Assembly: GCA_964631935.1 (NCBI GenBank)
Contig: CAZWAV010000001.1
Coordinates: 4,979-68,978 of the forward strand
Origin: an uncultured Candidatus Saccharibacteria bacterium
Lineage (GTDB): Bacteria > Patescibacteriota > Minisyncoccia > Phycocordibacterales > UBA9973
Direction: 5' to 3'
Length of the DNA: 64,000 nucleotides
The notes beneath the pieces were generated by a model. The model was not told the origin of the DNA, ran no database searches, and was given only the letters and a program-made list of their open reading frames with translations. This document shows positions 7,605-37,633 of this stretch, one piece after another. Numbering within the stretch: position 1 is the first letter of the stretch; each line of letters begins with the position of its first letter. The translations under genes were made by a program, and so were the position numbers.

Positions 7605-8825
7605 TTATTTTGTTGCCTGTTCTATTCGCTCAAGAGCTACAATAAATGCTGTTCGACGAATATCAGTTTTCAATTCAGTAGATCTTTTCCATATTATTTC
7701 TGTTTCCTCATCCATTATCTTTTTTAATTTTTTAAACACTTCCTCTTCGGTCCAGTGTTCACCTTTTAGGTTCTGCTCCCATTCAAAAGTTGAAACTGTT
7801 ACTCCGCCAGCATTCGCTAAAATGTCTGGAATAACAGGAATGTTTTTTGAGAAAAGTATATCATCGGCTTCTGGTGTAGTTGGGCCATTGGCAAGCTCGA
7901 CAACAAGCTTTGCTTTTATGTTATTTGCATTCGCTTCTGTAATTTGATTTTCAAGTGCAGCAGGAATAAGTATATCGCACTCCAAGAGAAGAAGATCTTC
8001 ATTGGTAATCATCTTTGATCCAGGGAATCCAGAAATTTGCCCGTTCTCTTTTTTGTATTCATTTAAAAGTTTTATATCAATACCGTCCTCTTTTAATATT
8101 GCTCCTTTTGAGTCGGATATAGCGATAATAGTGTGACCGTGCTTCGAAAGTATTTCTGCTGCATTACCACCGACATTTCCAAATCCTTGAATTACTATTT
8201 TGCATGAGTCAGGCATTGCCATCTTTTCCCTTATAGAATCAAATACATAAAACCCTCCGAGGCCTGTTGCTGGTCCGCGACCTTCTGACCCTCCGACTTC
8301 AATAGGCTTACCTGTAATAACAGCATTGGTTTTATCACCTGTAATTTTTGCATATTCATCTACCATCCAAGACATTATCTCAGGTGTTGTGTTTACATCA
8401 GGTGCTGGTACGTCGACTTGTGGACCAATGACAGGTGCCATAAGCTTAATCCATCCACGAGACAATCGCTCAAGTTCGCCCTTAGATAATTTTTTTGGAT
8501 CTACTGTAATACCACCCTTTCCTCCACCCATAGGAATGTTTGCAACAGCACACTTAAGTGCCATCCAAAAGGCGAGAGCTTTAACCTCATTTATGTCAGT
8601 ATCTTGATGGTATCTTATTCCACCTTTGTACGGCCCCCGAGCATTGTTGTATTGAACTCTATATCCCTCAAATATAGACAGTGAACCGTCATCCATAGTT
8701 ACAGGTATGGATATTCTAATTTCACGATTAGGTTGGTGAAGACGAGACAGGAATTCTTTGCTGAATTGCTTCACTTTCGTAGCTCTTTCTAGTTGTGATA
8801 GGGCATTTTCGAATGGATTATTCAT
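7605..8825 (-). CDS. gdhA: Glutamate dehydrogenase (Glu/Leu/Phe/Val dehydrogenase family)
   Basis: PMGGGKGG catalytic lysine region and a C-terminal NAD(P)-binding GFGNVG motif. Confidence 0.9.
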   Translation of the reverse strand: MNNPFENALSQLERATKVKQFSKEFLSRLHQPNREIRISIPVTMDDGSLSIFEGYRVQYNNARGPYKGGIRYHQDTDINEVKALAFWMALKCAVANIPMGGGKGGITVDPKKLSKGELERLSRGWIKLMAPVIGPQVDVPAPDVNTTPEIMSWMVDEYAKITGDKTNAVITGKPIEVGGSEGRGPATGLGGFYVFDSIREKMAMPDSCKIVIQGFGNVGGNAAEILSKHGHTIIAISDSKGAILKEDGIDIKLLNEYKKENGQISGFPGSKMITNEDLLLLECDILIPAALENQITEANANNIKAKLVVELANGPTTPEADDILFSKNIPVIPDILANAGGVTVSTFEWEQNLKGEHWTEEEVFKKLKKIMDEETEIIWKRSTELKTDIRRTAFIVALERIEQATK

Positions 8826-8935
8826 AATTTGTGTATTATTATTTTAATACTTTTTATTATACTCTTTTTGTCTGGCAACATATAATTTTGGTTATTAGCC
8901 TTATAATATAAGCTTAATAGGGGATGTAATAGCCC

Positions 8936-8965
8936 TTGACAAGATACATATATCTATGCTATAAT
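8936..8965 (+). promoter_or_regulatory. Consensus sigma70 promoter (TTGACA-18-TATAAT), -10 ending 6 nt before the ATG (leaderless transcript predicted)
   Basis: TTGACA at 8936-8941 and TATAAT at 8960-8965. ATG at 8972. No SD. Confidence 0.6.
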
Positions 8966-8971
8966 ACTCGC

Positions 8972-9472
8972 ATGAATATGAAAACAACAAAAAACTTAAT
9001 AATCTTATCAGCCTTTGTTTTTGGGCTCTTAGGTGCTAATAATGCGCTTGCTTATGTTCCAGGTGTCTGGGATCCAGCGCCACGTGTATATAACAATGAA
9101 CCAGCTTTCTATAAAGTGCCTGTTACTTACGATGCACCAGTAGTTCCTCAGACTACAACAACTTCTACGACTTCTACTACAACAACACCAAAGAAGACAG
9201 TAGCTACGAATACTTCTACAACTAAAAGTACTACTACAACAACAAATGTTAACGATGCTCGTGAGTTGAAACCAATTGTTACAGAAGATGCTTACAACAA
9301 TAATAATAATGGTCTAACAGCACTTTCACTTGCAGGCTCTGGTGGCTTTATGCCAAGTTCAGTATGGCAGTGGTTGATGGTGATATTGTTAATACTAGTG
9401 ATTATTATAATCGCTCGCATGCTAGGAAAGTCTCACTCTCATCATGAAGTTCACACTGTAACAGCACACTAA
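8972..9472 (+). CDS. Small Thr-rich surface protein with C-terminal sorting-signal-like tail (LAGSG motif, TM, basic tail)
   Basis: Signal peptide, a T/S-rich stalk, then ...SLAGSGG followed by a hydrophobic helix and ARMLGKSHSHH. The ORF-track start at 8936 lies inside the promoter, so the start is reassigned to ATG 8972. Confidence 0.5.
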   Translation: MNMKTTKNLIILSAFVFGLLGANNALAYVPGVWDPAPRVYNNEPAFYKVPVTYDAPVVPQTTTTSTTSTTTTPKKTVATNTSTTKSTTTTTNVNDARELKPIVTEDAYNNNNNGLTALSLAGSGGFMPSSVWQWLMVILLILVIIIIARMLGKSHSHHEVHTVTAH

Positions 9473-9487
9473 TTTTAGTATAAAATA

Positions 9488-9516
9488 TAAAAAGCACCCT
9501 ATCGGGTGCTTTTTAT
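9488..9516 (+). terminator. Rho-independent terminator
   Basis: AGCACCC-TATC-GGGTGCT hairpin followed by a T-run. Confidence 0.8.
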
Positions 9517-9600
9517 TATCCCCATAAAATCAAGAGATATATATATACATTAAATAACCAATATTGTATAATTATGTTATTAATACTAAAAAATAAAATC

Positions 9601-12600
9601 ATGAAAATGAAAAAACTTCATCAGCATCTTTCGGATAATTTGTCCTGGTACAAGCATTGGCATGAGACAGGTTTTCATAAAATTATACATTACGGTATAT
9701 TAGGGTTCGCCATCTTGTTTACCGTCGGAACCATTCTGTCTGCTACTACTGCAAGCGCCGTTGGAACCATATACTATGTATCGGCCTCTGGTTCAGACTC
9801 AAATAATGGTACTTCTATTTCTACCCCATGGCAAACAATCGCAAAGGTAAATGCCACCACATTTGTCGCTGGTGATAAAATACTCTTTAATTCTGGTGAT
9901 ACATTTACTGGGACTATCATTCCCTCTGCATCAGGGACATCCACTAATCCTATTACATATGGTGCGTATGGAAGTGGGGCAAAGCCGGTGATTACGGGGT
10001 TTGTAAATGTTTCAGGTTGGACAAGTTTAGGAGGGAATAAATGGGAGAGTGCGGCTCTTTCATCTGCATTTCCAGATATAAATATTTTGTCAGTTAATGG
10101 TGGTAATTATGCAAAAGGCCGAACTCCTGATACTGGATATTGGCCATCAACGAGTGCTACATATACCAAGAGTTCTAATGTTGGTACCATCACCGATACT
10201 GCTAATTTAAATGCAAGTTCAATCAATTGGAAAGATGCACAGGTGGTATTTCGAAGTCAGCGATGGGTTCTCGACAAAGCAACAATTACTGCTGCAAGTA
10301 CTAATAAGATAACTTTTAATGGTGAACCATCAACCACTCCTGGTTGGGGATATTTTATTCAGAATGACCCAAGGACACTCAATCTTGTTAATGAATGGAG
10401 TTATAATCCGACATCAAAACAAATAACTATCTATAGTACTTCGACACCAACGAACGTGAAAGCTCCAGCTATTGATGTGGCAGTAAATCTTAATAGTAAA
10501 GATTATATAACATTTGACGGTATTGATTTTACTGGATTTAATTCAACTGGTATTAATACAACTTCCAAAACTGGGATTACTGTAACAAACTCCGCTTTTA
10601 ATTTTATCGGCATTGATGCTATTTATGCATATCCAAATTCTATTAATTTAAAAGTTACTAATAATACTTTTAATGAGATAAATAGCAGAGGTATTCATGG
10701 TGGCTCTTCTGATAATGCTTTTATTTCGAATAACACCTTAAACAAAATTGGAAATCTTGCTGGGATGGGAAGTAATGGTGATGACAGCTATACTGGTATT
10801 ATATCTATGGGTGATAATGGTATTGTGTCTTTTAATTCAATTACCAATGCTGGTTATGTCGGTATTCGTTGGGATGGAAAAAGTAGTCAGATATTAAAAA
10901 ACTTTGTTGATACTACCAATTATATAAAAGATGATGGAGGAGGTATCTATTCATACCCACAACAAGATGGTACTGCGTACACAACAAGGTATCACGGTTT
11001 TCAGAGAACTGTCGCGAACAACATTGTTATGAATTCAATTGGTGCTGTTGCTGGTGGTGAACCTTCTAGTTCATACAGTCAAGGTGAAGGAATTTATGCT
11101 GATGGATTGAGTCCAAATATTAATTTTACAAATAATACTATTTACAAAGCAAAACTCGGGTTATTTATTAATGGGGGCCATGAAATAACCGCTTCTGGAA
11201 ATACTGTTTATGATACAGAGAGAGGAATAAACTTCATGGCAATCCCTGATAAAAATGGAGTGCAACAGCGTGCCCACGACGTAAGCTTACAAAGCAACAT
11301 TCTTGTAGCCAGAGAATCTTCTTTATATACAGAGTATCCAATATATCTTGAGTTAAAGGCTCCAACTCTCGCAACATGGATGGATGGATTCCTCGCAAAT
11401 AATAATGTGTATGCACGTGTCAGACCAGCCAATGATCCAAAGCTAATATGGCTTGATGTGAGTGGTCCTGCCGATGTATTTAAGTCACTTTCAGAATGGA
11501 GGTTATTTTCAAGTCAAGACTCAAATGCAACTGAATCTCCAGTGGCGTTAACAACATCAACCAATTTACGCTTTGAATATAATGCGTCATCAGCTCCTAA
11601 AGTCGTCTCCCTTACTGAAAAATATGTCGATATGAAAAACGTCGACCAGACTTGCACACTCACTATCCCAGCATGGAGCTCTGTGGTGATGATTAAAACA
11701 GGAACGACTTGTACTTCTAATGGTGACCCAACCCCTCCCTCAACCTCCCTCACATCCCCAACAACAGGTACAACAGTCCTCGGTACCACACAACAAGTAG
11801 CAGCTAATGCTACAGATAATGTAGGTGTCACTAAAGTAGAGTTCTACATAGATGGTACAACTACATTACTAAACTGTACTCCAAACCCAGACACTACATC
11901 ACCATATCTATGTATCTGGAACACTACAACAGTCTCAAACGGTACTCACACAATTACATCTAAAGCCTATGATGCTGCTGGTAACTCAGCTATATCATCT
12001 GTTGTTAGTGTGAATGTGCAGAATGTAGTAACTGATACTACTGCTCCAGTCTTTACACCAACAGGAGCTCTATCGTCACCATCAGCAAACCTTTCAGTTC
12101 CTGTGGGAACATCATACGACATCACTGCTCACGCAACAGACAATGTAGGAATGGCAAAAGTTGAATTCTATAAAGATGGAGTTCTCATCAATACTCAAAC
12201 ATCAGGTCCTAACTCGGACTTCACTTACTCATGGAATACAATAGGTCTAACTGTAGGTTCTACTCACTCATGGACAGCAAAAGCGTACGATACAGCAAGT
12301 CCTGCTAATGTATCAACTACTACAGCTAGAGTGATTACTATTGGAGCTGGAGCAGATACTACACCTCCAACAGCATCTATTACCAATGCAGGAGGATACT
12401 ACAAAGGCGGTACCCGCATGACTCTCAAAGCTACATCCTCAGATAATGTCGGAGTTACGAAAACTGAATTTTATGTAAATGATGTTAAAAAATGCACAGA
12501 CACAACATCACCATATACATGCTCATGGTCTATGCCGTCATCAACAACTGTCACTTCATATGTAATCAAAGCTAAAGCATATGATGCAGCAGGGAATGTT

Positions 12601-13297: not shown

Positions 13298-13326
13298 TTG
13301 ACAAAATGACTTATATGGTATATAAT
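13298..13326 (+). promoter_or_regulatory. Perfect consensus sigma70 promoter TTGACA-17-TATAAT
   Basis: TTGACA at 13298-13303 and TATAAT at 13321-13326. Lies ~140 nt upstream of the lipoprotein gene. Confidence 0.55.
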
Positions 13327-13466: not shown

Positions 13467-14132
13467 ATGAAAAAGTTAACAAACCTCATGGCGGTAATAG
13501 CCATAATCGTATCTTCATCAATTTTCACTTCATGCAAAAAAGCAAGTGCAGAAATCGATGAAACACCGGCAGATTTTAACAGTACTAAAACAGCGGTTCA
13601 AAAAGCCAATGACACAAAGACTGAATTACCTGCAAAATACGAAAACTACCTGGATCAAAACATGACAAATGTAAATGCTGGCCAGAACAAATGCAACATC
13701 CCAGCTCCCGTACAATGGGGCCAGGGCGGTGAAATTACAGCCTGGTTGCAATCAAGCCTGACAATCAATGCGAATTCTTACTACAGTTACTTTCCTCAGC
13801 CAATGGTAAATATACCTGCCTTAGGTAAATTCCAGGTTAAGTATTGTAAAAATGGTGTTTGGAAGGTTGCCAAAACGACTAAAGTAATTTGGCCAGGATC
13901 TGACTTATATGACTTCGGTAGTATGACCATAACAGGCTTAACCATAGATTATGGAACACAGTTCTACATGGAAAGCTGGGGATTGAGCATCTGTCTCAAT
14001 ACAAGTCATATAGCAGAAACTTTCGGACCATACTATGCTGGCAATACAGCTATCACAGAAAAATGGATCGGAACACATGCTGTTGATGGATCGTTGTTGG
14101 ATAAACAGGGTAAGCAAATAAATATGCAATAA
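13467..14132 (+). CDS. Lipoprotein (lipobox ...IFTSC), unknown function
   Basis: Signal peptide ending in a lipobox Cys. Gene body is visibly GC-richer, with more G/C third positions than its neighbours. Isolated by strong terminators on both sides. Confidence 0.5.
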   Translation: MKKLTNLMAVIAIIVSSSIFTSCKKASAEIDETPADFNSTKTAVQKANDTKTELPAKYENYLDQNMTNVNAGQNKCNIPAPVQWGQGGEITAWLQSSLTINANSYYSYFPQPMVNIPALGKFQVKYCKNGVWKVAKTTKVIWPGSDLYDFGSMTITGLTIDYGTQFYMESWGLSICLNTSHIAETFGPYYAGNTAITEKWIGTHAVDGSLLDKQGKQINMQ

Positions 14133-14238: not shown

Positions 14239-14883
14239 TTAAGTAGAGAAAGCACCTATTAAAGCGGCGGTTACGTTTAGTATTGTGTGGCTTATGCCCA
14301 TCCAGAGAAAATTACGATAATGGTAATAGATGAAAGCAAAGCCCAGTCCACCAATAAAACATATTAGGATGAATTGCCAACTAAACATACAGTGCATTGT
14401 CGTAAAGCACATAGTATTGGCGATAATTACGTCACGCTCTGACTTTAAGTACTTATTTAGAAATTTAATTAGAAATGTCCTATAACTTAAAACTTGAGCA
14501 AAACACAATGGAATGACAAAAAGGCGAAAGCTCAATTTATCAAGGATACCCACATCTGTCTTTAAGTTAAAAAAACCTTTTGCAATCAGAAGGAATGCTA
14601 TCCCTGCCAAAGTAAAAGTAGCATACACTACTATAGTCTCTAAGTCTGTATTTTTTCTCTCATAATTCCAATCAAAGCCTTTTTTATTTAGCCATCCTTC
14701 TTTGGCCATAAATAGCACACACAGAGATGTGCATACTGATAAAACAATAAGATTTGTATCAGGACTATGGGGGATAGTGCGTGTCCAGACAGCCAGTGGT
14801 GCTAAATAAAATATGATGATTAGAAAAGATACGTCAAACAGCATCTGGCCGTTTAGATCTCGGGTTAGTATTTTATTTTTCAT
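14239..14883 (-). CDS. Polytopic membrane protein, possible CPBP-family intramembrane protease
   Basis: Multiple TM helices. C-terminal FTTMH ... HTILN pattern (FxxxH and HxxxN motifs) is present, but motif 1 (EExxxR) is not clear. Confidence 0.35.
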   Translation of the reverse strand: MKNKILTRDLNGQMLFDVSFLIIIFYLAPLAVWTRTIPHSPDTNLIVLSVCTSLCVLFMAKEGWLNKKGFDWNYERKNTDLETIVVYATFTLAGIAFLLIAKGFFNLKTDVGILDKLSFRLFVIPLCFAQVLSYRTFLIKFLNKYLKSERDVIIANTMCFTTMHCMFSWQFILICFIGGLGFAFIYYHYRNFLWMGISHTILNVTAALIGAFST

Positions 14884-15015
14884 ATAGGGGTTGTTTGAGG
14901 TGGACACAAAAGACTTTCTAAATCTTCTCTGTTCACCCCACAATCCAATTTAAAAGAGCAATGTACTAGGTTACATTATAATATATATACTATTCCGTCA
15001 ATGAGATTATACCTA

Positions 15016-16697: not shown

Positions 16698-16822
16698 ATT
16701 TCCTGTTTTTTTGGTTTAGCATAAAAGACTTTTAAATAAATCTTCTTTGCTAAACCAAAAACCTATATAAAATAACTAATGTTACAAGCATGATAACATA
16801 TTACACGGTTTTGTCAAAATTA

Positions 16823-16851
16823 CCCCGAACTTAGTAGGATATTCGAATGAG
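16823..16851 (-). repeat. Cassette repeat copy A (partial: tRNA-Asn-3'-like module only)
   Basis: CCCCGAACTTAGTAGGATATTCGAATGAG matches the distal module of copies C, D and E. Confidence 0.6.
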
Positions 16852-16873
16852 TATAATATTAACTAACAAATAG

Positions 16874-17602
16874 TTACTTTATAGTTTTTACCGAGTTAAT
16901 TAAAATTTCTTTATTATTTCTGACATAATTAAAACTGGCTTTACCTTGGATGTGTCCATCTTCATAAGTCATTGTTCCAGTTTTCATTGATGGGTTTACG
17001 TTTACTAAAGTTACATACCATGAACCACCTAAAACAGGTTTTTCTGGCGCAATAGTTTTAATATTGTCTCTGATATATTTTTCAACGACAATTTTATCAT
17101 CAAGTGCCTCACAATCTGTTTGTGACATTTGAAATCCAGGTGTGATCTTGGTGGCATCTTTATATACATATACTCCATCTCCTTTGTCTATCATTTCACC
17201 AAACAAAGCGACAGCACTACCTTCCCCAAATTCAATTTTCAATTGCTCTGTTACGTGCATTCCTTCTCCCAGTGACTCCCACAAAACATCTGCAATACGA
17301 CCACTAATCTTGGGATCCATTTTACCAACTGTTCCGTTAAATTTCCCAATCTTGCTATCCTTTTCGGCTGGAAGATTTTGATATTCGCCAATTACTTTAT
17401 CACCTAAAATACTCATTTTAAGCCATGCACGGTCAGTAAGGCCACTTGAAGTTTCTTTAGAGTATTGATAACACATATCAGTAGTTTCTGTTTTTGAAGG
17501 GTTTTGGGCTACTTCTTCTTGCTCTTTATTCCTTGAAAGAAAAACAAAGATCAAGATTATAACAACAATAGAGATAACTATGTAAGTTAATATTTTTTTC
17601 AT
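16874..17602 (-). CDS. Cassette gene 1: membrane-anchored extracytoplasmic protein, unknown function
   Basis: N-terminal TM anchor followed by a soluble domain. Flanked by repeat copies A and B. Confidence 0.5.
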   Translation of the reverse strand: MKKILTYIVISIVVIILIFVFLSRNKEQEEVAQNPSKTETTDMCYQYSKETSSGLTDRAWLKMSILGDKVIGEYQNLPAEKDSKIGKFNGTVGKMDPKISGRIADVLWESLGEGMHVTEQLKIEFGEGSAVALFGEMIDKGDGVYVYKDATKITPGFQMSQTDCEALDDKIVVEKYIRDNIKTIAPEKPVLGGSWYVTLVNVNPSMKTGTMTYEDGHIQGKASFNYVRNNKEILINSVKTIK

Positions 17603-17614
17603 ATATAAACTATA

Positions 17615-17708
17615 TCATTAGTCTTGAACTTATACTAAGGCAACAAAAATAACCACTATAAAATAAGCTTCAAAAAAGTGTCTAGAACTTTGGATAATGT
17701 TCTAATGG
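17615..17708 (-). repeat. Cassette repeat copy B (degenerate full-length)
   Basis: TCATTAGTCTTGAACTTATACTAAGGCAACAAAAATAACC ... GTCTAGAACTTTGGATAATGTTCTAATGG is collinear with the other copies. Confidence 0.55.
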
Positions 17709-17726
17709 CAATAATATTTTGACTAA

Positions 17727-18107
17727 TTAAAATTCAACTATTGGTTTGAATCCTCCGCACACGAAACGCTTCATATCGACTGGCATTGTAGAAGAGTCGA
17801 AATCTTTTATACTTGGATCACTCATTACTTTTTTGTTCACTTGATCTCTGTGTGCACGAGATTTATATACGATCCAGGAGAAAACAACAGTCTCATCAGC
17901 CTTAAGATTTGCAAGCTTAATAAATCCTTTCTGTGGCATTCCTTTCTTTACCCTTAGATCATCTCCTATGCATTCAAAATATTCTAACGCGCCATTTTTC
18001 TTCCACATCTTAGCTCCCCATTCTGCCATCTTCTTGTAAGCGGCTAAATCTTTCTTTTTTATAGGTATCACAAAACCATCAACATATTTTTTACTTTTTG
18101 TATTCAT
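17727..18107 (-). CDS. Cassette gene 2: DUF1428 family protein
   Basis: YVDGFVIPIKKKDLAAYKKMAEWGAKMWKKNGALEYFECIGDD matches the DUF1428 N-terminus. Confidence 0.6.
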   Translation of the reverse strand: MNTKSKKYVDGFVIPIKKKDLAAYKKMAEWGAKMWKKNGALEYFECIGDDLRVKKGMPQKGFIKLANLKADETVVFSWIVYKSRAHRDQVNKKVMSDPSIKDFDSSTMPVDMKRFVCGGFKPIVEF

Positions 18108-18147
18108 TTTATTTTGATAAAATTAATAATAACACCTGCTAATTTTA

Positions 18148-18238
18148 TCATAGGTTCGAAGTTCCTAAAATGGTAACAAAAAAATCATCATATTTCTAAG
18201 TTGATTTTTATATGCTCCGAACTTGGGATGATGTTCGG
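18148..18238 (-). repeat. Cassette repeat copy C (full)
   Basis: TCATAGGTTCGAAGTTCC...GGTAACAAAAAAATCATC-loop-GTTGATTTTT...GCTCCGAACTTGGGATGATGTTCGG. Confidence 0.75.
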
Positions 18239-18244
18239 CAGAAT

Positions 18245-18937
18245 CTAAGGTAGACATTGCTGGTAGATTGCAAAAATATCAGTTCCCAATATATCAAAAT
18301 AAGCTGTGTAACCAAATTCTGCGGTTGAATTATCTACTTGTGGTTGAATCTTAGATATAAAATCTGATGTATTTTGCAGGCTAGGACCTACACTGCTGCC
18401 ATTAGCATTCTGAATTCCACAATCATAAACTCTAGTGTTGTTAACCACTTTTAAATTCCTTATTTTAGGATTATTATTAATGAAAAATCCTCCTGTACTA
18501 TCAACACCAGGGATCCATTCTTTATTAAGAGTTAAAATATCAACTGCAAATATCCACTTATTATCCTCTCTTTTTATTGATTTTATTGCGCCTGGCTGTT
18601 TAATAAAACTTTCTTTATCAAATGACACTACAAAACCAGCGTCATTTTTTTTCGCCCACTCACTTATATTTGTACCATCAGCAAATTGAGCATCTTCAAA
18701 CCTTGATGTAGTATCAATACCAGCATCTTCAATTGCTTTAAGTTCTTCTTGGGACAGTTGGTCAGGTAATAATTTTTTTTCTTTAGAAGTAGAGTCTTGT
18801 ACTTGTGATAATTCTACTTTAGTTCCCAAGATCATATTAACCACTTTAGGCACCCACATTTTTTGAGTCGCTAATAAACCTAAACCTATAACAATTAAAA
18901 CAAGAAGAAAAATTCTAATAAATTTTATCAAATTCAT
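18245..18937 (-). CDS. Cassette gene 3: membrane-anchored secreted protein, unknown function
   Basis: N-terminal TM anchor followed by an extracytoplasmic domain. Confidence 0.5.
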   Translation of the reverse strand: MNLIKFIRIFLLVLIVIGLGLLATQKMWVPKVVNMILGTKVELSQVQDSTSKEKKLLPDQLSQEELKAIEDAGIDTTSRFEDAQFADGTNISEWAKKNDAGFVVSFDKESFIKQPGAIKSIKREDNKWIFAVDILTLNKEWIPGVDSTGGFFINNNPKIRNLKVVNNTRVYDCGIQNANGSSVGPSLQNTSDFISKIQPQVDNSTAEFGYTAYFDILGTDIFAIYQQCLP

Positions 18938-18949
18938 ATATAAATAATA

Positions 18950-19037
18950 TCATAGGTTCGAACTTCTACTAAGGTAACAAAAAATCACCTTATTTTTAAA
19001 GTGATTTTCTAGTGCTCCGAACCTGGGACGATGTTCA
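18950..19037 (-). repeat. Cassette repeat copy D (full)
   Basis: Collinear with copies C, E and G. Hairpin AAAATCAC / GTGATTTT. Confidence 0.75.
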
Positions 19038-19047
19038 AATTTATTTA

Positions 19048-19572
19048 TTATCGTCTTAGTAAAGCATCTACTGCAGCATCAAGGTTATCAAAAACATCTG
19101 ATTGATCCTTTTTACATTGGTCATATTTTGTATCACCTGGTCCACCATATCCTCCGCAGTTTGACCAACTTAGATTGAATTTTGTATTTCTGGTAGCGCT
19201 GTAGTTTTCAGTTACATACGTATATTCTCCACCCCAATGACCAGCACCACCATCAACAAAACTCGTAATGCAATACTTCCTGCCATTAATTATTTTTTCA
19301 GTTTTTGTTGCTTGAGGAGATTTAGAATCTGGTTCACAAATAAATGGGGTGTAGGGGGCTGGGGAGTTGTGAATTGCTGGTGGCCATGTTTGCGAGCTAA
19401 TATAGCCTCGATTTATAGCACCTGAGACAGTAGACAATATATTATTCTCATTAGTAGTTGTTTGATTTGTTGAACTAGGTAAAACAACTGTTCTTCGTTC
19501 GGGTTTCAATTGCAAATATCCTAATATTCCGACAATGAGTACTAAAAACACAATTATAATATTTTTATTCAT
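19048..19572 (-). CDS. Cassette gene 4: membrane-anchored secreted Cys-containing protein, unknown function
   Basis: N-terminal TM anchor. Six Cys residues in the mature part. Confidence 0.5.
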   Translation of the reverse strand: MNKNIIIVFLVLIVGILGYLQLKPERRTVVLPSSTNQTTTNENNILSTVSGAINRGYISSQTWPPAIHNSPAPYTPFICEPDSKSPQATKTEKIINGRKYCITSFVDGGAGHWGGEYTYVTENYSATRNTKFNLSWSNCGGYGGPGDTKYDQCKKDQSDVFDNLDAAVDALLRR

Positions 19573-19584
19573 GCATAAATTCTA

Positions 19585-19678
19585 TCATAGGTTCGAACTT
19601 CCACTAAGGTAACAAAAAATCACCCTATTTCTAAGGTGATTTTTATATGCTCCGAATTTGGGATGATGTTCGAATGAG
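19585..19678 (-). repeat. Cassette repeat copy E (full, with compensatory CC/GG change in hairpin)
   Basis: AAAAATCACC-CTATTTCTAA-GGTGATTTTT hairpin has a 10-bp stem. The covarying stem bases relative to copies D and G indicate selection on structure. Confidence 0.75.
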
Positions 19679-19710
19679 TTTACTTTATAGATAATAATGT
19701 AAAACAAAAA

Positions 19711-19743
19711 TACAGCTATGCTCCTTTGGGGGTATAGCTGTAT
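19711..19743 (-). terminator. Terminator of cassette gene 5
   Basis: ACAGCTAT...ATAGCTGT hairpin followed by a T-run on the minus strand. Confidence 0.55.
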
Positions 19744-19761
19744 TGTAGTGAATAAATCTCT

Positions 19762-19971
19762 TTACTGCGTGGGGGGCTCTGGGCCAAAATATTGAGTCCA
19801 TTCTTCCCTGGTACAATTGGGGCATTCGTGAAGGTGTGTTTTTCCACGACATGAATTGTCATGTTCCCATACATGACCACAATTATCACACTTGTGTCTG
19901 TGAAAACCATCAGGGCTTTCATAATTTACGGCGGATGATTGTGATTGAGGCAGTGTTTGATTGTTTGGCAT
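19762..19971 (-). CDS. Cassette gene 5: small zinc-ribbon-like protein (two CxxC pairs)
   Basis: HKCDNCGHVWEH...HECPNCTREEW. Preferred over the overlapping 19716-19922 ORF, which is in another frame. Confidence 0.4.
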   Translation of the reverse strand: MPNNQTLPQSQSSAVNYESPDGFHRHKCDNCGHVWEHDNSCRGKTHLHECPNCTREEWTQYFGPEPPTQ

Positions 19972-20116
19972 CTTTGATCGTTTTATTGTGTAAGAGTTAT
20001 TGATTCACCTCCACTCCCCAATAGAAGCAGAGAAGAATCAACAAAATTCACAATAAATAATCTCAAAGAACTACCATTGCTTGTACAATAGCATAAATAT
20101 ATTAATTTGTCAAATT

Positions 20117-20146
20117 GCTCCGTATCTGGGAGGATGTTCGAATGAG
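20117..20146 (-). repeat. Cassette repeat copy F (partial: tRNA-3'-like module)
   Basis: GCTCCGTATCTGGGAGGATGTTCGAATGAG. Confidence 0.6.
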
Positions 20147-20162
20147 CATTATAGAGTAAATA

Positions 20163-21131
20163 TTATACGCCAATTTTCGGTTCCCAATTTTTTACACTTG
20201 TATGTAGTATTTTCAGTTTAGAAAGCCAATTTATAACAAAGAAAAATTGCTTAATAAAAATTAAGAAAATAACTGTAGATAATAAATTGAAAAGTAAATG
20301 CATATTGGCAATTTGTTGAGTCACGTTACCTCCGAATCTGATAATTAAACTAGTAAGCATTGGTAAAAATGGATAAATTATTATTACTCCAATCACATTA
20401 AATAGAAAGTGGGCTAATGCTGTTTTCTTTGCTTCTATTTGCATCGGTATAGTAGCTAGAAGTGCCGTCGAAGTAGTTCCAATGTTTGCACCCAGCATTA
20501 ATCCTATACCTTGAGGCAAGCTGATTAAGCCTGAAATGGATAAAGCCAGAATCAGCCCCCCTGTGACACTACTTGATTGAAATATTGTTGTAATGAGTAT
20601 TCCTACAATAATAGCTATAGGAATATTAGTTATCTTTGATATTGCATTTAATATATCTGGGTTATCGGTAAGTGGTGCTACTACTTGTGTTATCAGAGAA
20701 ATACAAAAGAAAACTAACCCAAAATAAAAAACAGACTTACCATAAATACTATATTTCTTTCCAAATTTTAGAAGTAAGAAACCAAATATAATGATAAAAG
20801 GCGCAATTGCTGTGACATTAAATGCAATTAACTGAGAAGTAATAGTGGTTCCAATATTTGCGCCAAAAACAATACTCAGACTTTCATAAAAAGTAATAAT
20901 ACCAGCATTTACAAGTCCAACAGTCATCACAGTTGTTGCGGTACTCGATTGAATGATTGAGGTTACAGCCGTCCCAGTAAGAGTTCCTATTATTGGATTT
21001 TTAGTTAAACGTTTTAAAAGAGTTTTTAACCTAACACCTGCAACTTGTTCAATCTGCCTGCTAAATTTGTTTATACTAAATATAAAAATAAGCACTAAGG
21101 CTACAACAGTGACAGTAATTTGAAATATCAT
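20163..21131 (-). CDS. Cassette gene 6: Na+/phosphate cotransporter family (PF02690-like) membrane protein
   Basis: Two internal repeats carrying QSSTATT / QSSSVTG and GANIGTT signatures. Confidence 0.75.
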   Translation of the reverse strand: MIFQITVTVVALVLIFIFSINKFSRQIEQVAGVRLKTLLKRLTKNPIIGTLTGTAVTSIIQSSTATTVMTVGLVNAGIITFYESLSIVFGANIGTTITSQLIAFNVTAIAPFIIIFGFLLLKFGKKYSIYGKSVFYFGLVFFCISLITQVVAPLTDNPDILNAISKITNIPIAIIVGILITTIFQSSSVTGGLILALSISGLISLPQGIGLMLGANIGTTSTALLATIPMQIEAKKTALAHFLFNVIGVIIIYPFLPMLTSLIIRFGGNVTQQIANMHLLFNLLSTVIFLIFIKQFFFVINWLSKLKILHTSVKNWEPKIGV

Positions 21132-21143
21132 TTATACATTATA

Positions 21144-21206
21144 TCAAAGGTTCGAACTTCTACTAAGGTAACAAAAAATCACCTTATTTCTAAAGTGATT
21201 TTTCGA
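21144..21206 (-). repeat. Cassette repeat copy G (proximal module plus hairpin, fused directly to the genuine tRNA-Asn 3' end)
   Basis: TCAAAGGTTCGAACTTCTACTAAGGTAACAAAAAATCACC...GTGATTTTT, then the tRNA. The hairpin also serves as the tRNA terminator. Confidence 0.75.
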
Positions 21207-21208
21207 GG

Positions 21209-21280
21209 CTCCGGAGGCAGGGATCGAACCTGCGACCAATCGATTAACAGTCGATTGCTCTACCGCTGAGCTACTCCGGA
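21209..21280 (-). tRNA. tRNA-Asn (anticodon GTT)
   Basis: Manual fold: acceptor TCCGGAG/CTCCGGA, D-arm GCTCAGCGGTAGAGC, anticodon loop CTGTTAA, T-arm GGTTCGATCC. Confidence 0.85.
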
Positions 21281-29271: not shown

Positions 29272-30390
29272 ATGACAAAAAAGATTTTTTCATACGTTTT
29301 AGTTTTTGCTTTTGCATTTTTTATAAGTGCACAGACAATTCCTAAAATAGTTCGCGCAAGCCTTGCATTACCACAATGCCAAGACGGTTTAGATAACGAT
29401 TCTGATGGAGTTATAGATAACTTAGACCCACAGTGTCACACAGATGGCGATGCTTCTAATGCATTTTCATATGACGCAAATATCGACAATGAAGCTGCGC
29501 CTCCAGGTGGTGGTCTTGCATTACCACAATGCCAAGATGGTTTAGATAACGATTCTGATGGAGTTATAGATAACTTAGATCCACAGTGTCACACAGATGG
29601 CGATGCTTCTAATGCATTTTCATATGACGCAAATATCGACAATGAAGCTTCACCAGTAATAATAACTAGCGGAGGTGGAGGAGGAGGTGGACATCATCTA
29701 TGTTCTGATACATTAGATAATGACAGTGATGGAGTTGTCGATTCAGCTGATCCAGGATGTCATAGTGATGGCGATCCTACTAACACTGCTTCATATAACC
29801 CATTCGATGATAGTGAATTAAACACAAATACTGTAACTACAGCTCCAGTGCCACAAGTTCTGGGTGCTACTACTGGTCCAGTAGAATGTGGTGGTCTTAC
29901 AGGCCGACCATGTTCATTACAGAAGACAGGTGGTACAGAAGTATCTCAAAGAACTCTATTAAACAGAAAGGCAAATGCTATTGCAATGAGTGAACACAAT
30001 GAACTAATTATTCCAAAGCTAGGAATAGACAAAAATGTTCTCTACTATCAATCAACTGACTCTCTATTTAAGGAAGCAATGCTCCTACCTTGGACATCTA
30101 CGCCAGATAAAGGTGGTAACACTGTTCTTGTCGGACATGCTTACTACCTTAGAAATAATATTTACTCTAAGTCTACATTTTATGAACTAGATAAAATGTC
30201 TGCTGGCGACGAAATTACGATGTACTGGAAAGGAGTAAAATACACATACATAGTAAAAGAAATGAAGAAAGTGACTCCAGACCAAATAGATATTGAAAGT
30301 CCTACAACAACACCGACTCTCACTATTTATTCTTGTGGACGATTCACGAATCTTACAAGAACAGTAGTTGTAGCTACTCTTAAGGCCTAA
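29272..30390 (+). CDS. Secreted sortase-domain protein with N-terminal Cys/Asp-rich Ca-binding-like repeats
   Basis: Signal peptide. Three repeats of QCxDGxDNDSDGVxDxxDPxCH. The C-terminal domain carries NTVLVGHAYY...GDEITMYWKGVKYTYIV...TLTIYSCGRF...R, matching the sortase His, TLxTC-like Cys and Arg. Confidence 0.6.
   Translation: MTKKIFSYVLVFAFAFFISAQTIPKIVRASLALPQCQDGLDNDSDGVIDNLDPQCHTDGDASNAFSYDANIDNEAAPPGGGLALPQCQDGLDNDSDGVIDNLDPQCHTDGDASNAFSYDANIDNEASPVIITSGGGGGGGHHLCSDTLDNDSDGVVDSADPGCHSDGDPTNTASYNPFDDSELNTNTVTTAPVPQVLGATTGPVECGGLTGRPCSLQKTGGTEVSQRTLLNRKANAIAMSEHNELIIPKLGIDKNVLYYQSTDSLFKEAMLLPWTSTPDKGGNTVLVGHAYYLRNNIYSKSTFYELDKMSAGDEITMYWKGVKYTYIVKEMKKVTPDQIDIESPTTTPTLTIYSCGRFTNLTRTVVVATLKA
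29362..29650 (+). repeat. Near-identical in-frame tandem duplication (2 x 136 bp, period 153 bp, 3 mismatches) inside the sortase-domain gene
   Basis: Unit 1 at 29362-29497 and unit 2 at 29515-29650 were compared base by base. Confidence 0.9.
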
Positions 30391-35795: not shown

Positions 35796-36266
35796 ATGAA
35801 AAAAAATATATCAATATCTATAATACTCCTCACAATACTGTTTGCCCCGTTTATTGGTACAAAGTTAGCCTACGTAGAAGCAAAGCCTATTGTTCCTGAT
35901 TGTGGAACCCTCTCTACTCCTACTGATAGTAGTGGTAATCCAAAAAAAGATTCTGCAGGTAACATAATCACACAAAAAGTCATAACTAATCCTTGTGATT
36001 TCGATGATTTAATGGATTTGATAAACAACCTCATTAACTTCTTGCTATTCGTTATTGCTACACCCCTCGTGGCAATCATACTTTGCTATGTAGGATTTAA
36101 ATTGCTTACTTCAGGGGGTAATTCAGAAGGTATGACTAAAGCCAAAACTATACTAAAGAATGTTATTTTTGGTTATATAATAGCTCTTATTGCATGGCTG
36201 CTTATAAAGACCATACTTACAACTGTAGGTATTGATCCAAAGGATGCTTTCCTTATTGAATTCTAA
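35796..36266 (+). CDS. VirB2/TrbC-like pilin paralog 1
   Basis: Signal peptide, a short variable domain with 2 Cys, then hydrophobic helix - charged loop (SGGNSEGMTKAK) - hydrophobic helix. Confidence 0.5.
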   Translation: MKKNISISIILLTILFAPFIGTKLAYVEAKPIVPDCGTLSTPTDSSGNPKKDSAGNIITQKVITNPCDFDDLMDLINNLINFLLFVIATPLVAIILCYVGFKLLTSGGNSEGMTKAKTILKNVIFGYIIALIAWLLIKTILTTVGIDPKDAFLIEF

Positions 36267-36297
36267 TTATCAACTAAATGTTATATAATAATCTCAT

Positions 36298-36819
36298 ATG
36301 AATATTTTCAGAGTAAAAGGTAAAAAATTAGTCTTAGAAATTACAAAATATCTTTTTGTCTTCTTGGTAGCTTTTGTTTTAATTAGACCAGTTTTTGCTG
36401 ATCCTTGTACGGGTCAAGACAATACTGGAACTCCTACTCCTTATGGTTGTACTTCTACAATTGATAATACCCAACAGAATAGTTCTACAATTGACAACAC
36501 AAAACCCAATACAGATACTGGTATAAAAATTAATTCAGGAATAAAAAACCCACTTGGTAATGGCTTTGGTTCTGACATTCCAACTTTCCTAGAATCAGTT
36601 TTAAATTTCTTTCTCCTAATAGGTATACCTATTATTACTTTGGCGATAATATACTGTGGTTTCCTTTTTGTTACAGCACAAGGCAATTCTGAGAAATTGA
36701 AAAAGGCCAAGCAAGCATTACTCTACACTATAGTTGGCGCAGCTCTATTACTTGGCTCTCTGGTTATAACTCGTGCCATTCAAGGTACAGTCGATGAAAT
36801 TAAAACTAACAATAAATAA
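36298..36819 (+). CDS. VirB2/TrbC-like pilin paralog 2
   Basis: Same TM-loop-TM C-terminal module (…CGFLFVTAQGNSEKLKKAKQALLYTIVGAALLLG…). Confidence 0.5.
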   Translation: MNIFRVKGKKLVLEITKYLFVFLVAFVLIRPVFADPCTGQDNTGTPTPYGCTSTIDNTQQNSSTIDNTKPNTDTGIKINSGIKNPLGNGFGSDIPTFLESVLNFFLLIGIPIITLAIIYCGFLFVTAQGNSEKLKKAKQALLYTIVGAALLLGSLVITRAIQGTVDEIKTNNK

Positions 36820-36822
36820 TTT

Positions 36823-37125
36823 ATGGATATTTGTAAAACAGCAGAGACAAAATTAGATAGCATTGGGCATATATTTAACTGGGCAAGTTGTACGCTTATT
36901 AAGTTTGTTGTGCCTCTACTTTTTTCTCTTGCGACAGTAGGGTTTATCTGGGGTATCATTCAATATTTCTTAAACCCCGATAATGAAGAAAAGCGTAAAA
37001 AAGGGAAGAGTTATATGATTTGGGGATTGATTGCTCTGTTTGTGATGGTGAGTATGTGGGGACTGGTTGGAGTACTGACGAAGACCTTCGGCATCCAGAC
37101 ACTTATTCCCCAGCTTTCACAGTAG
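36823..37125 (+). CDS. VirB2/TrbC-like pilin paralog 3
   Basis: …FIWGIIQYFLNPDNEEKRKKGKSYMIWGLIALFVMVSMWG…. Confidence 0.5.
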   Translation: MDICKTAETKLDSIGHIFNWASCTLIKFVVPLLFSLATVGFIWGIIQYFLNPDNEEKRKKGKSYMIWGLIALFVMVSMWGLVGVLTKTFGIQTLIPQLSQ

Positions 37126-37253
37126 GGTATTGTAATTTGTTAGTTCTTTTATGATATAATAGAGGGGTAAATAAGTAGATAGTACATTACCTGCGGTCGC
37201 AAGGTAATGACAAATTATTATAAGAGTTTTTTATTAATTAATTTAGTTAACTT

Positions 37254-37610
37254 ATGAAGAAAATTATTGCATTCGGTTTAGCGTTCGGCGTAACTCCATT
37301 CTTGGCTCTTGCCGCAGATGCGTTCAGTATTATTACAAAGATAAATCAAATACTTTCTCTCGTTATTCCAGTTTTGATTACTCTTGCTGTTGTTTACTTT
37401 ATCTGGGGTATTATCCAATACACTCTTTCTACAGATGAAGAAAAGAAAAAGAAAGCTCGTGGGATGATCATCAATGGTCTTATCGGTCTATTTATAATCG
37501 TTGCTTTCTGGGGTATCATCAGACTTGTTACAAATACATTTGGTGTTGGTCCTGAACAACTAAACTCAAACGCTATACCTTGTATCCCTGGCCCTGGTGT
37601 TCCTTGCTAG
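37254..37610 (+). CDS. VirB2/TrbC-like pilin paralog 4
   Basis: …FIWGIIQYTLSTDEEKKKKARGMIINGLIGLFIIVAFWG…. Confidence 0.5.
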   Translation: MKKIIAFGLAFGVTPFLALAADAFSIITKINQILSLVIPVLITLAVVYFIWGIIQYTLSTDEEKKKKARGMIINGLIGLFIIVAFWGIIRLVTNTFGVGPEQLNSNAIPCIPGPGVPC

Positions 37611-37633
37611 TACTAGTCTACAACTAATAATAT

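Follow-up and report, generated by a model that had tools for sequence, protein, structure and literature searches.

The window, as we call the whole 64,000-nt stretch of DNA that was analysed, carries a short gene running from an ATG at 8972 to a stop codon at 9470-9472, whose product of 166 aa we refer to as the stalk protein. The initial annotation gave a length of 167 aa, in which the stop codon had been counted, and placed the start at 8936; an in-frame TTG does lie there, but it falls on the -35 box of the promoter, and the real start is the ATG. Since no stop codon intervenes, a 178-aa open reading frame had been called from this TTG. The identical 166-aa gene was independently called on JGI and Logan contigs, JGI 3300045313 and SRR12404947 being among the samples in which this genome occurs, and an exact look-up of three start variants in the cluster collection found none of them, which we read as an indexing gap.

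The protein has the layout described in the initial annotation, a signal peptide, a Thr/Ser-rich stalk, the motif SLAGSGG, a hydrophobic segment and a basic tail. Its signal peptide reads MNMKTTKNLIILSAFVFGLLGANNALA, followed by Y; the stalk reads QTTTTSTTSTTTTPKK...TTKSTTTTT and the C-terminal part ...LTALSLAGSGGFMPSSVWQW-LMVILLILVIIIIA-RMLGKSHSHHEVHTVTAH. The coordinates of all features are collected in Table 1.

Table 1. Features of the stalk-protein gene and its flanks, in window coordinates.
Feature	Position	Strand	Basis
Near-palindromic block GCCTTATAATATAAGC, family consensus CCTTAT-N-AAGG	8898..8913	.	Upstream-region alignment
-35 hexamer TTGACA	8936..8941	+	Sequence reading, scan; identical in 42/42 distinct homologous loci
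Extended -10 TGcTATAAT, 18 nt past -35	8957..8965	+	Sequence reading, scan
ATG start codon, A = predicted +1	8972..8974	+	6-nt gap to -10
Sec-type signal peptide, aa 1-27 (predicted)	8972..9052	+	Homologue alignment; AlphaFold2 helix, residues 3-25
Mature N-terminal Pro-rich segment YVPGVWDPAPRV..PAFYKVP..YDAPVVP, aa 28-59	9053..9148	+	Alignment
Low-complexity stalk rich in Thr/Ser/Asn, aa 60-112, of variable length and sequence	9149..9307	+	Alignment
Juxtamembrane motif NGLTALSLAGSGGFMPSSV, aa 113-131	9308..9364	+	Alignment
TM helix WQWLMVILLILVIIIIA, aa 132-148	9365..9415	+	Alignment; AlphaFold2 helix 131-152, pLDDT ~82
Cytoplasmic tail RMLGKSHSHHEVHTVTAH, aa 149-166, ends H-x4-H	9416..9469	+	Alignment
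Intrinsic terminator hairpin AAAAAGCACCC-tatc-GGGTGCTTTTT and U-run	9487..9516	.	Scan, RNA fold

The N-terminus aligns to the MN/MK-x-K-T-x-KNLI of the homologues and continues with the Lys-rich n-region and hydrophobic core of a signal peptide that closes with A-L-A before the Tyr. Ala27 is invariant in the alignment, and the -3/-1 rule predicts cleavage after this residue (A-L-A). The Pro-rich segment that would form the mature N-terminus is kept in closer relatives only and is modelled as disordered by AlphaFold2, its place being taken by other Tyr/Asn/Gln-rich sequences in distant members. In the stalk, which is the least conserved region of the protein, pLDDT stays below 50 (AlphaFold2), and a tandem-repeat analysis of the underlying DNA detected no tandem repeat. 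The AlphaFold2 model of the 166-aa protein, computed with an alignment of 37 sequences, contained no fold: it consists of the signal-peptide helix and the TM helix only, the remainder being disordered (mean pLDDT 58). Searched against Pfam and NCBIfam, neither the full protein nor any of 21 C-terminal segments could be assigned to a family; the single Pfam match was a sub-threshold, low-complexity hit to 'Mucin', and the matches of the C-terminal segments to TM models were at chance level.

Upstream of the gene, the initial annotation had described a textbook promoter, TTGACA-18-TATAAT, ending 6 nt before the ATG, and this arrangement proved to be near-invariant across 42 distinct homologous loci. 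TATAAT occupies 8960-8965 and is preceded by TGc at 8957-8959, which makes it an extended -10 element. Of the 42 loci, 40 retain TATAAT, 41 the TG and 39 the 18-nt spacer, and the ATG follows the -10 box after a gap of 6 nt in 37 and of 7 nt in three. The promoter is thus kept in register with the ATG in loci of other genomes, whose proteins are 30-60% identical. The gap itself, ACTCGC in the window, differs in sequence between loci and holds no Shine-Dalgarno motif. In a scan, the promoter was the only one matching at 12/12 positions with a TG between 8700 and 9700, and the perfect pattern TTGACA-N16-19-TATAAT occurred at two sites in the 64 kb, this promoter being one of them, against 0.22 expected. 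The promoter is therefore more than a chance match. With the 6-nt gap conserved and a Shine-Dalgarno sequence missing, the proposal that the gene gives rise to a leaderless mRNA is strongly supported by sequence, and transcription would start at the A of the ATG at 8972. Promoter quality by itself suggests that the gene is highly expressed.

The leaderless layout is not special to the stalk-protein gene; it is usual for genes that come first in their operons, both in the window and across some 40 related genomes. Of the 61 genes of the window, 11 start exactly 6 nt past a -10 box (0.28 expected), and only 5 are preceded by an SD-like sequence. Across 46 related loci (642 kb), a further 46 open reading frames start 6 nt past TGnTAnAAT and 22 start at 7 nt, compared with about one at other distances. 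In most of the other leaderless genes of the window, an extended -10 (TGn) is not accompanied by a good -35; the stalk-protein gene has both. These widespread -10 boxes 6 nt before starts agree with published work, according to which about half of Parcubacteria have lost the anti-Shine-Dalgarno motif (PMC9297842). The arrangement also resembles the leaderless mRNAs of Actinobacteria, Deinococcus and archaea, in which the start codon follows a -10 box by 6-7 nt, transcription begins with the A of the AUG, a Shine-Dalgarno sequence is missing and many genes of a genome are involved; here, in contrast, the host is a Paceibacteria (CPR) genome. Our search of the literature turned up no account of leaderless initiation in Patescibacteria, CPR, Parcubacteria or Saccharibacteria, the loss of the anti-Shine-Dalgarno motif being all that had been reported.

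Downstream of the gene, the terminator hairpin folds more stably than any of 200 shuffled sequences (-18.2 kcal/mol, z = -5.75). Promoter and terminator together delimit a monocistronic unit of ~550 nt. The near-palindromic block, which precedes the -35 by ~25 nt and sits between the gene and a divergent glutamate dehydrogenase (GDH) gene, was conserved in most of 35 aligned upstream regions and may represent an operator or a shared regulatory site. Among the loci compared, conservation of gene order lies on the upstream side, with PepN and GDH, synteny with PepN being retained in 34 of 44; the downstream side showed none. An Rfam scan of the window returned four tRNAs and nothing else.

Homologue searches recovered 92 proteins, all of 117-266 aa. 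When 1.84 billion protein representatives were searched with a profile of the C-terminal module, 609 matched at E <= 1e-3, and among the best 150 of these all proteins were 76-329 aa long with the module at their extreme C-terminus. The stringent motif was carried by 43 of the species genomes scanned. These proteins form an unnamed family of small, single-copy type I membrane proteins specific to Paceibacteria (Parcubacteria/CPR). Being confined to a subclade, the family does not serve a core function of the phylum.

Conservation within the family, expressed as majority-residue fractions over 37 sequences, is concentrated at the C-terminal end: it reaches 0.85 in the juxtamembrane motif, 0.80 in the TM and 0.59 in the tail, and falls to 0.38 in the stalk. 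The motif contains seven invariant residues (A117, L118, S119, G122, F126, M127 and P128). Within it, residue 120 is distributed as L26/V7/I2/F1/M1, the 'A' of LAGSG at 121 varies widely (A15/R8/Q4/N4/G3/K3), and the following residues are again nearly fixed (122, G37; 123, S35/N1/T1; 124, G35/N2). W134, L142 and I145 are invariant in the TM. The tail, of which SHSHHEVHTVTAH is a peptide, has two invariant residues (R149 and H161) and either K or R at position 153, and it closes with the final His in 36/37 sequences; the tails of distant members still contain His at their end.

These observations are, in our view, rather more probably than otherwise explained by a type I membrane protein that is clade-specific and abundant and keeps its anchor. 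The near-perfect, invariant sigma-70-type promoter would start the transcript at the A of the ATG, so that the ribosome would initiate on a leaderless mRNA, as would be usual for operon-first genes in these genomes lacking Shine-Dalgarno signals, and the hairpin terminator would close the monocistronic transcript. After export, the Sec signal peptide would be taken off after Ala27. The remaining ~140 aa would have their N-terminus outside, with a short Pro-rich tip and a disordered, probably glycosylated stalk rich in Thr/Ser/Asn. The C-terminal module of ~55 aa that defines the family (TALS-phi-x-GSG(G/S)-FMPSS-(I/V)WQW, TM, Arg and a tail ending in H-x4-H) would act as the retained anchor, and its strict conservation would come from docking to a partner, itself conserved, in the membrane or the cytoplasm. 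The ectodomain, which evolves fast, would then serve as an abundant hydrophilic surface coat or spacer. Both the retention of the anchor and the role as a coat are inferred.

Two features speak against a retained anchor. The small-residue GSGG at the membrane surface would also fit a recognition site for a processing enzyme, and a low-complexity stalk before a TM and a basic tail is how wall-anchored proteins are classically built, in a genome that has a sortase.

The first of these features could mean that the module is a recognition or cleavage signal for some other, single-client enzyme, which releases or re-anchors the ectodomain; a rhomboid or rhombosortase-like protease, an archaeosortase-like enzyme or another intramembrane protease would be candidates. 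The type I topology, the small residues (GSGG) and the helix-breaking Pro-Ser-Ser at the outer end of the TM are all present, and rhomboid substrates as well as GlyGly-CTERM and PGF-CTERM signals combine type I topology with small residues and a helix breaker. The module shares with GlyGly-CTERM (rhombosortase) and PGF-CTERM/PEP-CTERM (archaeosortase/exosortase) signals the small residues (G-G or G-F) right before the TM and the basic residue, and with PGF-CTERM glycoproteins the Thr-rich linker preceding the signal, which carries O-glycans in those proteins. The extreme conservation of the motif would suit an enzyme recognition site, and a CPBP-type intramembrane protease is encoded at 14239-14943, 5 kb downstream. 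Between one and four of 21 members also gave weak matches to PACE-CTERM, JDVT-CTERM, PEF-CTERM or PEFG-CTERM (E 0.002 to 0.1), but these are at chance level and absent from most members. Furthermore, no candidate enzyme is a conserved neighbour of the gene on either side, and no rhombosortase, archaeosortase or exosortase was found among the membrane proteins scanned in these 64 kb of the genome. Known CTERM signals tag several proteins per genome, whereas the module tags one, and the conserved, His-containing cytoplasmic tail would be left unexplained. We therefore regard processing by such an enzyme as unlikely. We would also give only a small chance to a more far-reaching version, namely that the 55-aa module (TALS-x-x-GSG-x-FMPSS-x-WQW, TM, Arg, H-x4-H) is a new CPR-specific, single-client sorting signal, read by a processing enzyme or by the unusual Paceibacteria sortase with a non-canonical LxGS↓G specificity, and that these ultra-small cells use it to fix to their envelope a stalk protein that is abundant and mucin-like.

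The second feature leads to the proposal of the initial annotation, that the C-terminus is a cell-wall sorting signal; the sortase encoded at 29272-30390 would cut within LAGSG (after Ser123) and link the stalk protein to the wall. This open reading frame, ~20 kb from the stalk-protein gene, does encode a true sortase domain (PF04203, E = 7e-21) with the catalytic His, Cys and Arg conserved, the catalytic domain covering aa ~240-372. Sortase and stalk-protein family occur on the same contigs in three close relatives, judging from agreement in the lengths of the longest contigs, and sortases are present in more than half of CPR genomes (PMC6744442). The tripartite layout is real as well: a predicted Sec signal peptide, a Thr-rich, 'wall-spanning' stalk, a short motif, and a hydrophobic segment with a positively charged tail (Arg/Lys) at the extreme C-terminus are also the hallmarks of LPXTG/LAxTG substrates (TIGR01167, PF00746). 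At least one sortase signal found in nature has Ser at P1 (Listeria SrtB, NPKSS).

The sequence of the motif, in contrast, does not follow that of sortase substrates. LAGSG had been described as one substitution away from LAxTG; the family does not show the pentapeptide L-[P/A]-x-T-G or a class variant of it, with P4, P3, P1 and P1' conserved and P2 variable, since Ser replaces Thr at P1 and conservation is out of register, the would-be Pro/Ala position (P3) being variable and the would-be x an invariant Gly. LPXTG-anchor models (TIGR01167, PF00746) matched neither the full-length protein nor any of 21 C-terminal segments, even at E <= 10, a threshold at which HMMER filters may still hide very weak matches. 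The motif is embedded in ~20 conserved residues, and the flanking TALS and FMPSS, as well as the TM and the H-x4-H tail, match or exceed GSG in conservation; such high conservation of TM and tail is unexpected for a sorting signal that is discarded.

The genomic distribution of the motif likewise argues against wall sorting. The absence of the motif from other proteins of the genome is part of what, in the initial annotation, would count against its reading; we found the core motif at one locus per assembly in 43 assemblies, and the profile search recovered the same small family only. No other protein with this layout and motif occurs in the window or in the 46 loci, and among the best 150 of the 609 profile matches the module was never on large surface proteins. 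The other tripartite C-termini of the window and loci belonged to polytopic proteins, T4SS-pilin-like proteins and spurious open reading frames only; an odd one was seen in locus L042 (5091-5654), ending ...TPEGATFLLFMVGLAFIVMVRRRLL.

The stalk protein had also been suggested as the client of this particular sortase. A tblastn search with the window's sortase found no sortase within +-10 kb of the 46 loci, and the sortase family has an invariant LQ[KR]TG of its own. The conserved partner of the sortase is an adjoining secreted protein of 547 aa, and another Patescibacteria sortase adjoins giant proteins ending in LPDTG/LVDTG, a TM and a basic tail. Metagenome contigs, scanned for proteins closely related to the window's sortase, yielded none. 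For comparison, the module peptide reads ALSLAGSGGFMP and the LQKTG peptide of the sortase itself PCSLQKTGGTEV. The sortase-substrate reading is not supported by anything beyond the general layout, and we consider wall sorting of the stalk protein very unlikely.

We also compared the C-terminus with TatA/TatE, as the TM module might itself be the functional unit, a small membrane subunit that oligomerises or becomes part of a membrane machine, as TatA does, and for which the ectodomain is a dispensable spacer. Both have a short N-out/C-in TM starting G-G-x-S-x-W-Q-(L/W)-L-I, then a basic residue and x-L-G, and this stretch (G-G-x-S-x-WQ-LLI...(K/R)-x-L-G) is the source of weak matches of 14 of the 21 C-terminal segments to TatA models (best E = 0.007); the TM sequence is also conserved far past the needs of hydrophobicity. 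The likeness is not significant, however, at ~12 bits against a TatA cut-off of 104 bits. The stalk protein has neither a hinge nor an amphipathic helix, and its TM is C-terminal, following a signal peptide and an exported region of 130 aa, whereas that of TatA is N-terminal. The strong promoter and the stalk would be left unexplained. On score and architecture we rejected this reading, which we consider very improbable. A prepilin-like reading (G↓F, then a hydrophobic helix) was rejected too, because the topology is inverted, the motif coming after a Sec signal and 125 exported residues, and because Glu is lacking at +5.

The stalk protein thus reveals no new class of sortase substrates. The family had previously been unnamed; leaderless starts are of a kind known elsewhere, in Actinobacteria, Deinococcus and archaea. 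For gene calling, the locus shows that leaderless open reading frames may be wrongly extended through their own promoters (P0036; the 178-aa TTG open reading frame). The invariant promoter provides a clean comparative case for leaderless translation initiation in these genomes.

The envelope of Paceibacteria/Parcubacteria is essentially uncharacterised, and the stalk protein is a clade-conserved, single-copy surface protein of these cells that is very probably abundant. With an invariant anchor module and a fast-evolving ectodomain, it would be a good handle on envelope biology, for antibodies or tags directed at uncultured cells, and on contact with the host.

The stalk protein gene lies behind a complete promoter and is followed by a hairpin with a U-run which ends the unit, making the gene monocistronic (Table). 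The initial annotation had given its span as 8936-9472 and its product as 167 aa. The stop codon indeed ends at 9472, but position 8936 belongs to the -35 box, and translation from the ATG yields 166 aa. A TTG at 8936 is also in frame with the ATG and, because no stop codon intervenes between promoter and ATG, the ORF listing reports a 178-aa ORF. ORF finders can thus run the gene through its own promoter (8936-8971), as they also do in the 203-aa version of the homologous protein P0036. The upstream reading frame gives '..LT.x.x.ICYNTxM' in nearly every locus; this conserved 'LT..ICYNT' peptide is an artefact, the translation of the promoter TTGACA...TGCTATAAT.

Table. Features of the stalk protein gene and its product, and of the sortase locus. 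Promoter elements were counted in 42 distinct stretches of upstream DNA; values for protein regions are the fraction of sequences with the majority residue in the family alignment (A1).
Feature	Position	Strand	Detail	Conservation
-35 box, TTGACA	8936-8941		followed by an 18-nt spacer	TTGACA 42/42 loci; 18-nt spacer 39/42 loci
Extended -10 box, TGcTATAAT	8957-8965		6 nt (ACTCGC) to ATG 8972	TATAAT 40/42 loci; TG 41/42 loci; 6-nt gap 37/42 loci; 7-nt gap 3/42 loci
Stalk protein gene	ATG 8972, stop 9470-9472	+	read from sequence	
Signal peptide	residues 1-27			0.58
Mature N-terminal segment	residues 28-59			0.61
Stalk	residues 60-112			0.38
Juxtamembrane motif	residues 113-131			0.85
TM helix	residues 132-148			0.80
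Tail	residues 149-166			0.59
Hairpin and U-run, unit end	9487-9516		-18.2 kcal/mol, z = -5.75	
Secreted protein, 547 aa	27449-29092	+	directly upstream of the sortase	
Sortase	29272-30390		PF04203, E = 7e-21	

The textbook promoter described in the initial annotation, with a -10 box ending 6 nt from the ATG, is read directly in the sequence and is kept almost without change across the 42 loci. It is the sole 12/12 match with TG in 8700-9700, and only one further perfect TTGACA-N16-19-TATAAT site occurs in the 64 kb (G+C ~36-38%), where 0.22 were expected in all. The sequences of spacer and gap are free to vary. Protein identity in the family is just 30-60%, so strong selection must be acting on the hexamers and on their spacing from the ATG. 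A leaderless mRNA has, by definition, its +1 at the A of the ATG, and the 6-nt gap places the canonical +1 at this nucleotide; the proposed leaderless layout is therefore strongly supported, with a transcription start predicted from promoter geometry.

Other elements were observed around this and the second perfect site. A near-palindromic block, GCCTTATAATATAAGC (8898-8913; family consensus CCTTAT-N-AAGG), lies ~25 nt upstream of the -35 box in the intergenic region common with the divergent GDH gene and is kept in most loci. A G-rich run, GGTAGGGG, that many loci share lies immediately 5' of the -35 box. A regulator may act at either of them. The second site, TTGACA-N17-TATAAT at 13298-13326 (+), follows the terminator of a 1,214-aa beta-helix/Big_7 gene. 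It lacks an ATG at +1, and ~134 nt separate it from the lipoprotein-like ORF that comes next, at 13467. This stretch, which gave no Rfam match, may serve as a long leader or encode a small RNA.

We then compared the start of the stalk gene with those of other genes. Using 2,144 control ATGs to derive expected counts, we found a -10-like hexamer ending exactly 6 nt from the annotated start in 11 of the 61 window genes (expected 0.28) and 8 nt before it in 5 (expected 0.34). SD-like sequences preceded only 5/61 genes. In 46 related loci (642 kb, about 40 related genomes), 305 TGnTAnAAT boxes were present and, with the target family left out, an ATG opening an ORF of at least 80 codons stood at 6 nt for 46 of them, at 7 nt for 22, at 8 nt for 10 and at 9 nt for 8, with ~1 at each of the remaining distances between 0 and 30. 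The usual form is an extended TGnTAnAAT without a good -35, and internal operon genes typically start at a TAAT-ATG or AATAAT-ATG junction. The predicted leaderless layout is thus the rule in the window and the related loci rather than a peculiarity of the stalk gene. What sets this gene apart is the perfect -35 added to the extended -10, which suggests very high expression. According to a published survey (PMC9297842), about half of Parcubacteria 16S rRNAs lack the anti-SD motif, and our literature search found no paper on leaderless initiation in Parcubacteria/CPR.

An intergenic repeat of ~60-116 nt was also found in 3-6 copies at 16800-21250 (-), preceding genes 16874-17602, 18245-18937, 19048-19572 and 20163-21131. 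Each copy gives a TGATAnnAT -10 box 6 nt upstream of the ATG. One of the copies shares positions with the 3' part of tRNA-Asn (21207-21280), and a T-arm-like GGTTCGAAC occurs within the repeats. Three of the genes behind them encode small proteins without assigned function with an N-terminal TM.

The layout of the protein, in the main that proposed initially, could be read in the sequence: a signal peptide (MNMKTTKNLIILSAFVFGLLGANNALA, followed by Y), a Pro-rich segment, a Thr-rich stalk, LTALSLAGSGGFMPSSVWQW, a hydrophobic helix and the tail RMLGKSHSHHEVHTVTAH. An AlphaFold2 model based on the family alignment contained helices only at 3-25 (signal peptide) and 131-152 (TM), the remainder being low-confidence coil. 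A search of 5.8 billion proteins returned 92 relatives of 117-266 aa, none meaningfully named, and the stalk protein matched no Pfam or NCBIfam family. The MAGs that hold the homologous loci are of Paceibacteria, Nomurabacteria and Minisyncoccia (CPR/Patescibacteria); the family is unnamed and confined to a Paceibacteria subclade. PepN neighbours it in 34/44 loci and GDH in 22/44, both on the divergent side, and the downstream side is not conserved.

The window itself carries T4SS-pilin-like genes, M1 aminopeptidase, glutamate dehydrogenase, FtsZ/FtsA and similar genes. Four small T4SS-pilin/TrbC-like proteins (PF18895) and a 611-aa protein with the same N-terminal domain are encoded at 35796-39469 (+), downstream of a solute-binding protein, and the same cluster occurs in the related locus L047. 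In a single other locus (L042, 5091-5654), a 187-aa ORF ~300 nt downstream of the family member ends in a PEP-CTERM-like ...GSGVTGQEKTFGADTPEGATFLLFMVGLAFIVMVRRRLL.

Conservation is highest in the C-terminal part. R149 and H161 of the tail never vary, and 36/37 sequences have its final His. Distant members have the entire ectodomain swapped for Tyr/Asn/Gln-rich repeats, and one has an apparent FN3-type (fibronectin type III) segment, judged by eye; all keep the C-terminal module of ~55 aa, from the juxtamembrane motif to the His-containing tail. The stalk protein is probably a coat or spacer with a retained type I membrane anchor, a reading whose descriptive part is well supported and whose role is inferred. 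A leaderless, probably abundant transcript would be made, the product exported by Sec and the signal peptide cut after Ala27, as predicted. The cell surface would then bear a disordered stalk, probably O-glycosylated and topped by a short tip. The module would anchor the protein by docking specifically to a conserved partner in the membrane or cytoplasm, and these contacts would have fixed its sequence. For the H-x4-H C-terminus, binding of a metal or of a partner domain is conceivable.

That the module is instead a dedicated cleavage signal for a non-sortase enzyme is improbable: rhomboid-type or CTERM-type systems do use sites like GSGG-F-M-P-S-S, located where a type I TM meets the outside, but no enzyme is linked to it, the model matches are at chance level and the tail is left unexplained. 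We likewise give little credence to the module being a new sorting signal that is confined to CPR bacteria and serves a single client.

The proposal of the initial annotation, that the stalk protein is a client of the window sortase, fares worse and is very unlikely. The layout fits and the sortase is real, but every further test went against it. LAGSG had been taken as a near-LAxTG motif, yet its conservation is out of register: the would-be conserved Ala/Pro position is variable (A15/R8/Q4/N4/G3/K3), the would-be free 'x' is an invariant Gly, and Ser stands in place of Thr. The conserved block, TALS...GSG.FMPSS.WQW, is far longer than five residues. In a sorting signal, TM and tail are discarded and need only be hydrophobic and basic; here, TM and H-x4-H tail are tightly constrained. 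LPXTG-anchor models matched 0/21 members, even at E <= 10. When one genome per species was scanned for the pattern, 43 different assemblies gave 43 loci, a single client per genome. A module-only profile gave 609 matches at E <= 1e-3 among 1.84 billion protein representatives, of which the best 150 were all of 76-329 aa with the module at the extreme C-terminus, not large surface proteins. The lack of other proteins sharing the motif had been named at the outset as telling against the model, and no other ORF in the window or the 46 loci combined motif and layout. No sortase lay within +-10 kb of the family gene in these loci. The only remaining support is the general design and the finding that a few close relatives have family and sortase on one contig, which is ordinary synteny. 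The stalk protein lies outside every curated sorting-signal family, whose defining features were tested and are absent. A TatA-like membrane subunit is most doubtful, since the weak TatA matches (14/21 members, best E = 0.007) arise from a common GG.S.WQ.LLI pattern and neither scores nor architecture fit.

Better candidate partners exist for the window sortase. In its orthologues, the gene just upstream still encodes a secreted protein of ~550 aa when the surroundings are otherwise different (L047 and L048). The window's copy matches no Pfam family; its C-terminus resembles a T9SS-type beta-sandwich sorting domain (NF033708, E = 0.036, below cut-off), which would be odd in a CPR bacterium. 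The sortase, encoded on the + strand, combines a signal/anchor peptide with three acidic double-disulfide repeats (NF033662). Between the repeats and the catalytic domain, the segment at aa 196-221 reads V-L-G...P-C-x-L-Q-[K/R]-T-G-[G/A] and is invariant in 13/13 aligned orthologues. The sortase itself therefore bears a substrate-like LxxTG motif, which could be a self-substrate or a pseudo-substrate lid. On a different Patescibacteria contig (L049, 324-10082), a small sortase follows two giant surface proteins (1,787 and 1,285 aa) that contain SpaA, SdrD_B and CLIPPER domains. Ahead of a C-terminal TM and basic tail, one has VLGA-LVDTG and the other VLGAD-LPDTG; they are canonical sortase clients in a CPR genome. 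From these examples, the CPR sortase signals seen here keep Thr-Gly.

Gram-positive-style stalk proteins are the closest to the stalk protein in working, from which it differs by its permanent TM anchor. With a predicted mRNA of standard leaderless design, in a clade for which this had, as far as we found, no earlier description, the stalk protein belongs among bitopic surface proteins made from leaderless genes.
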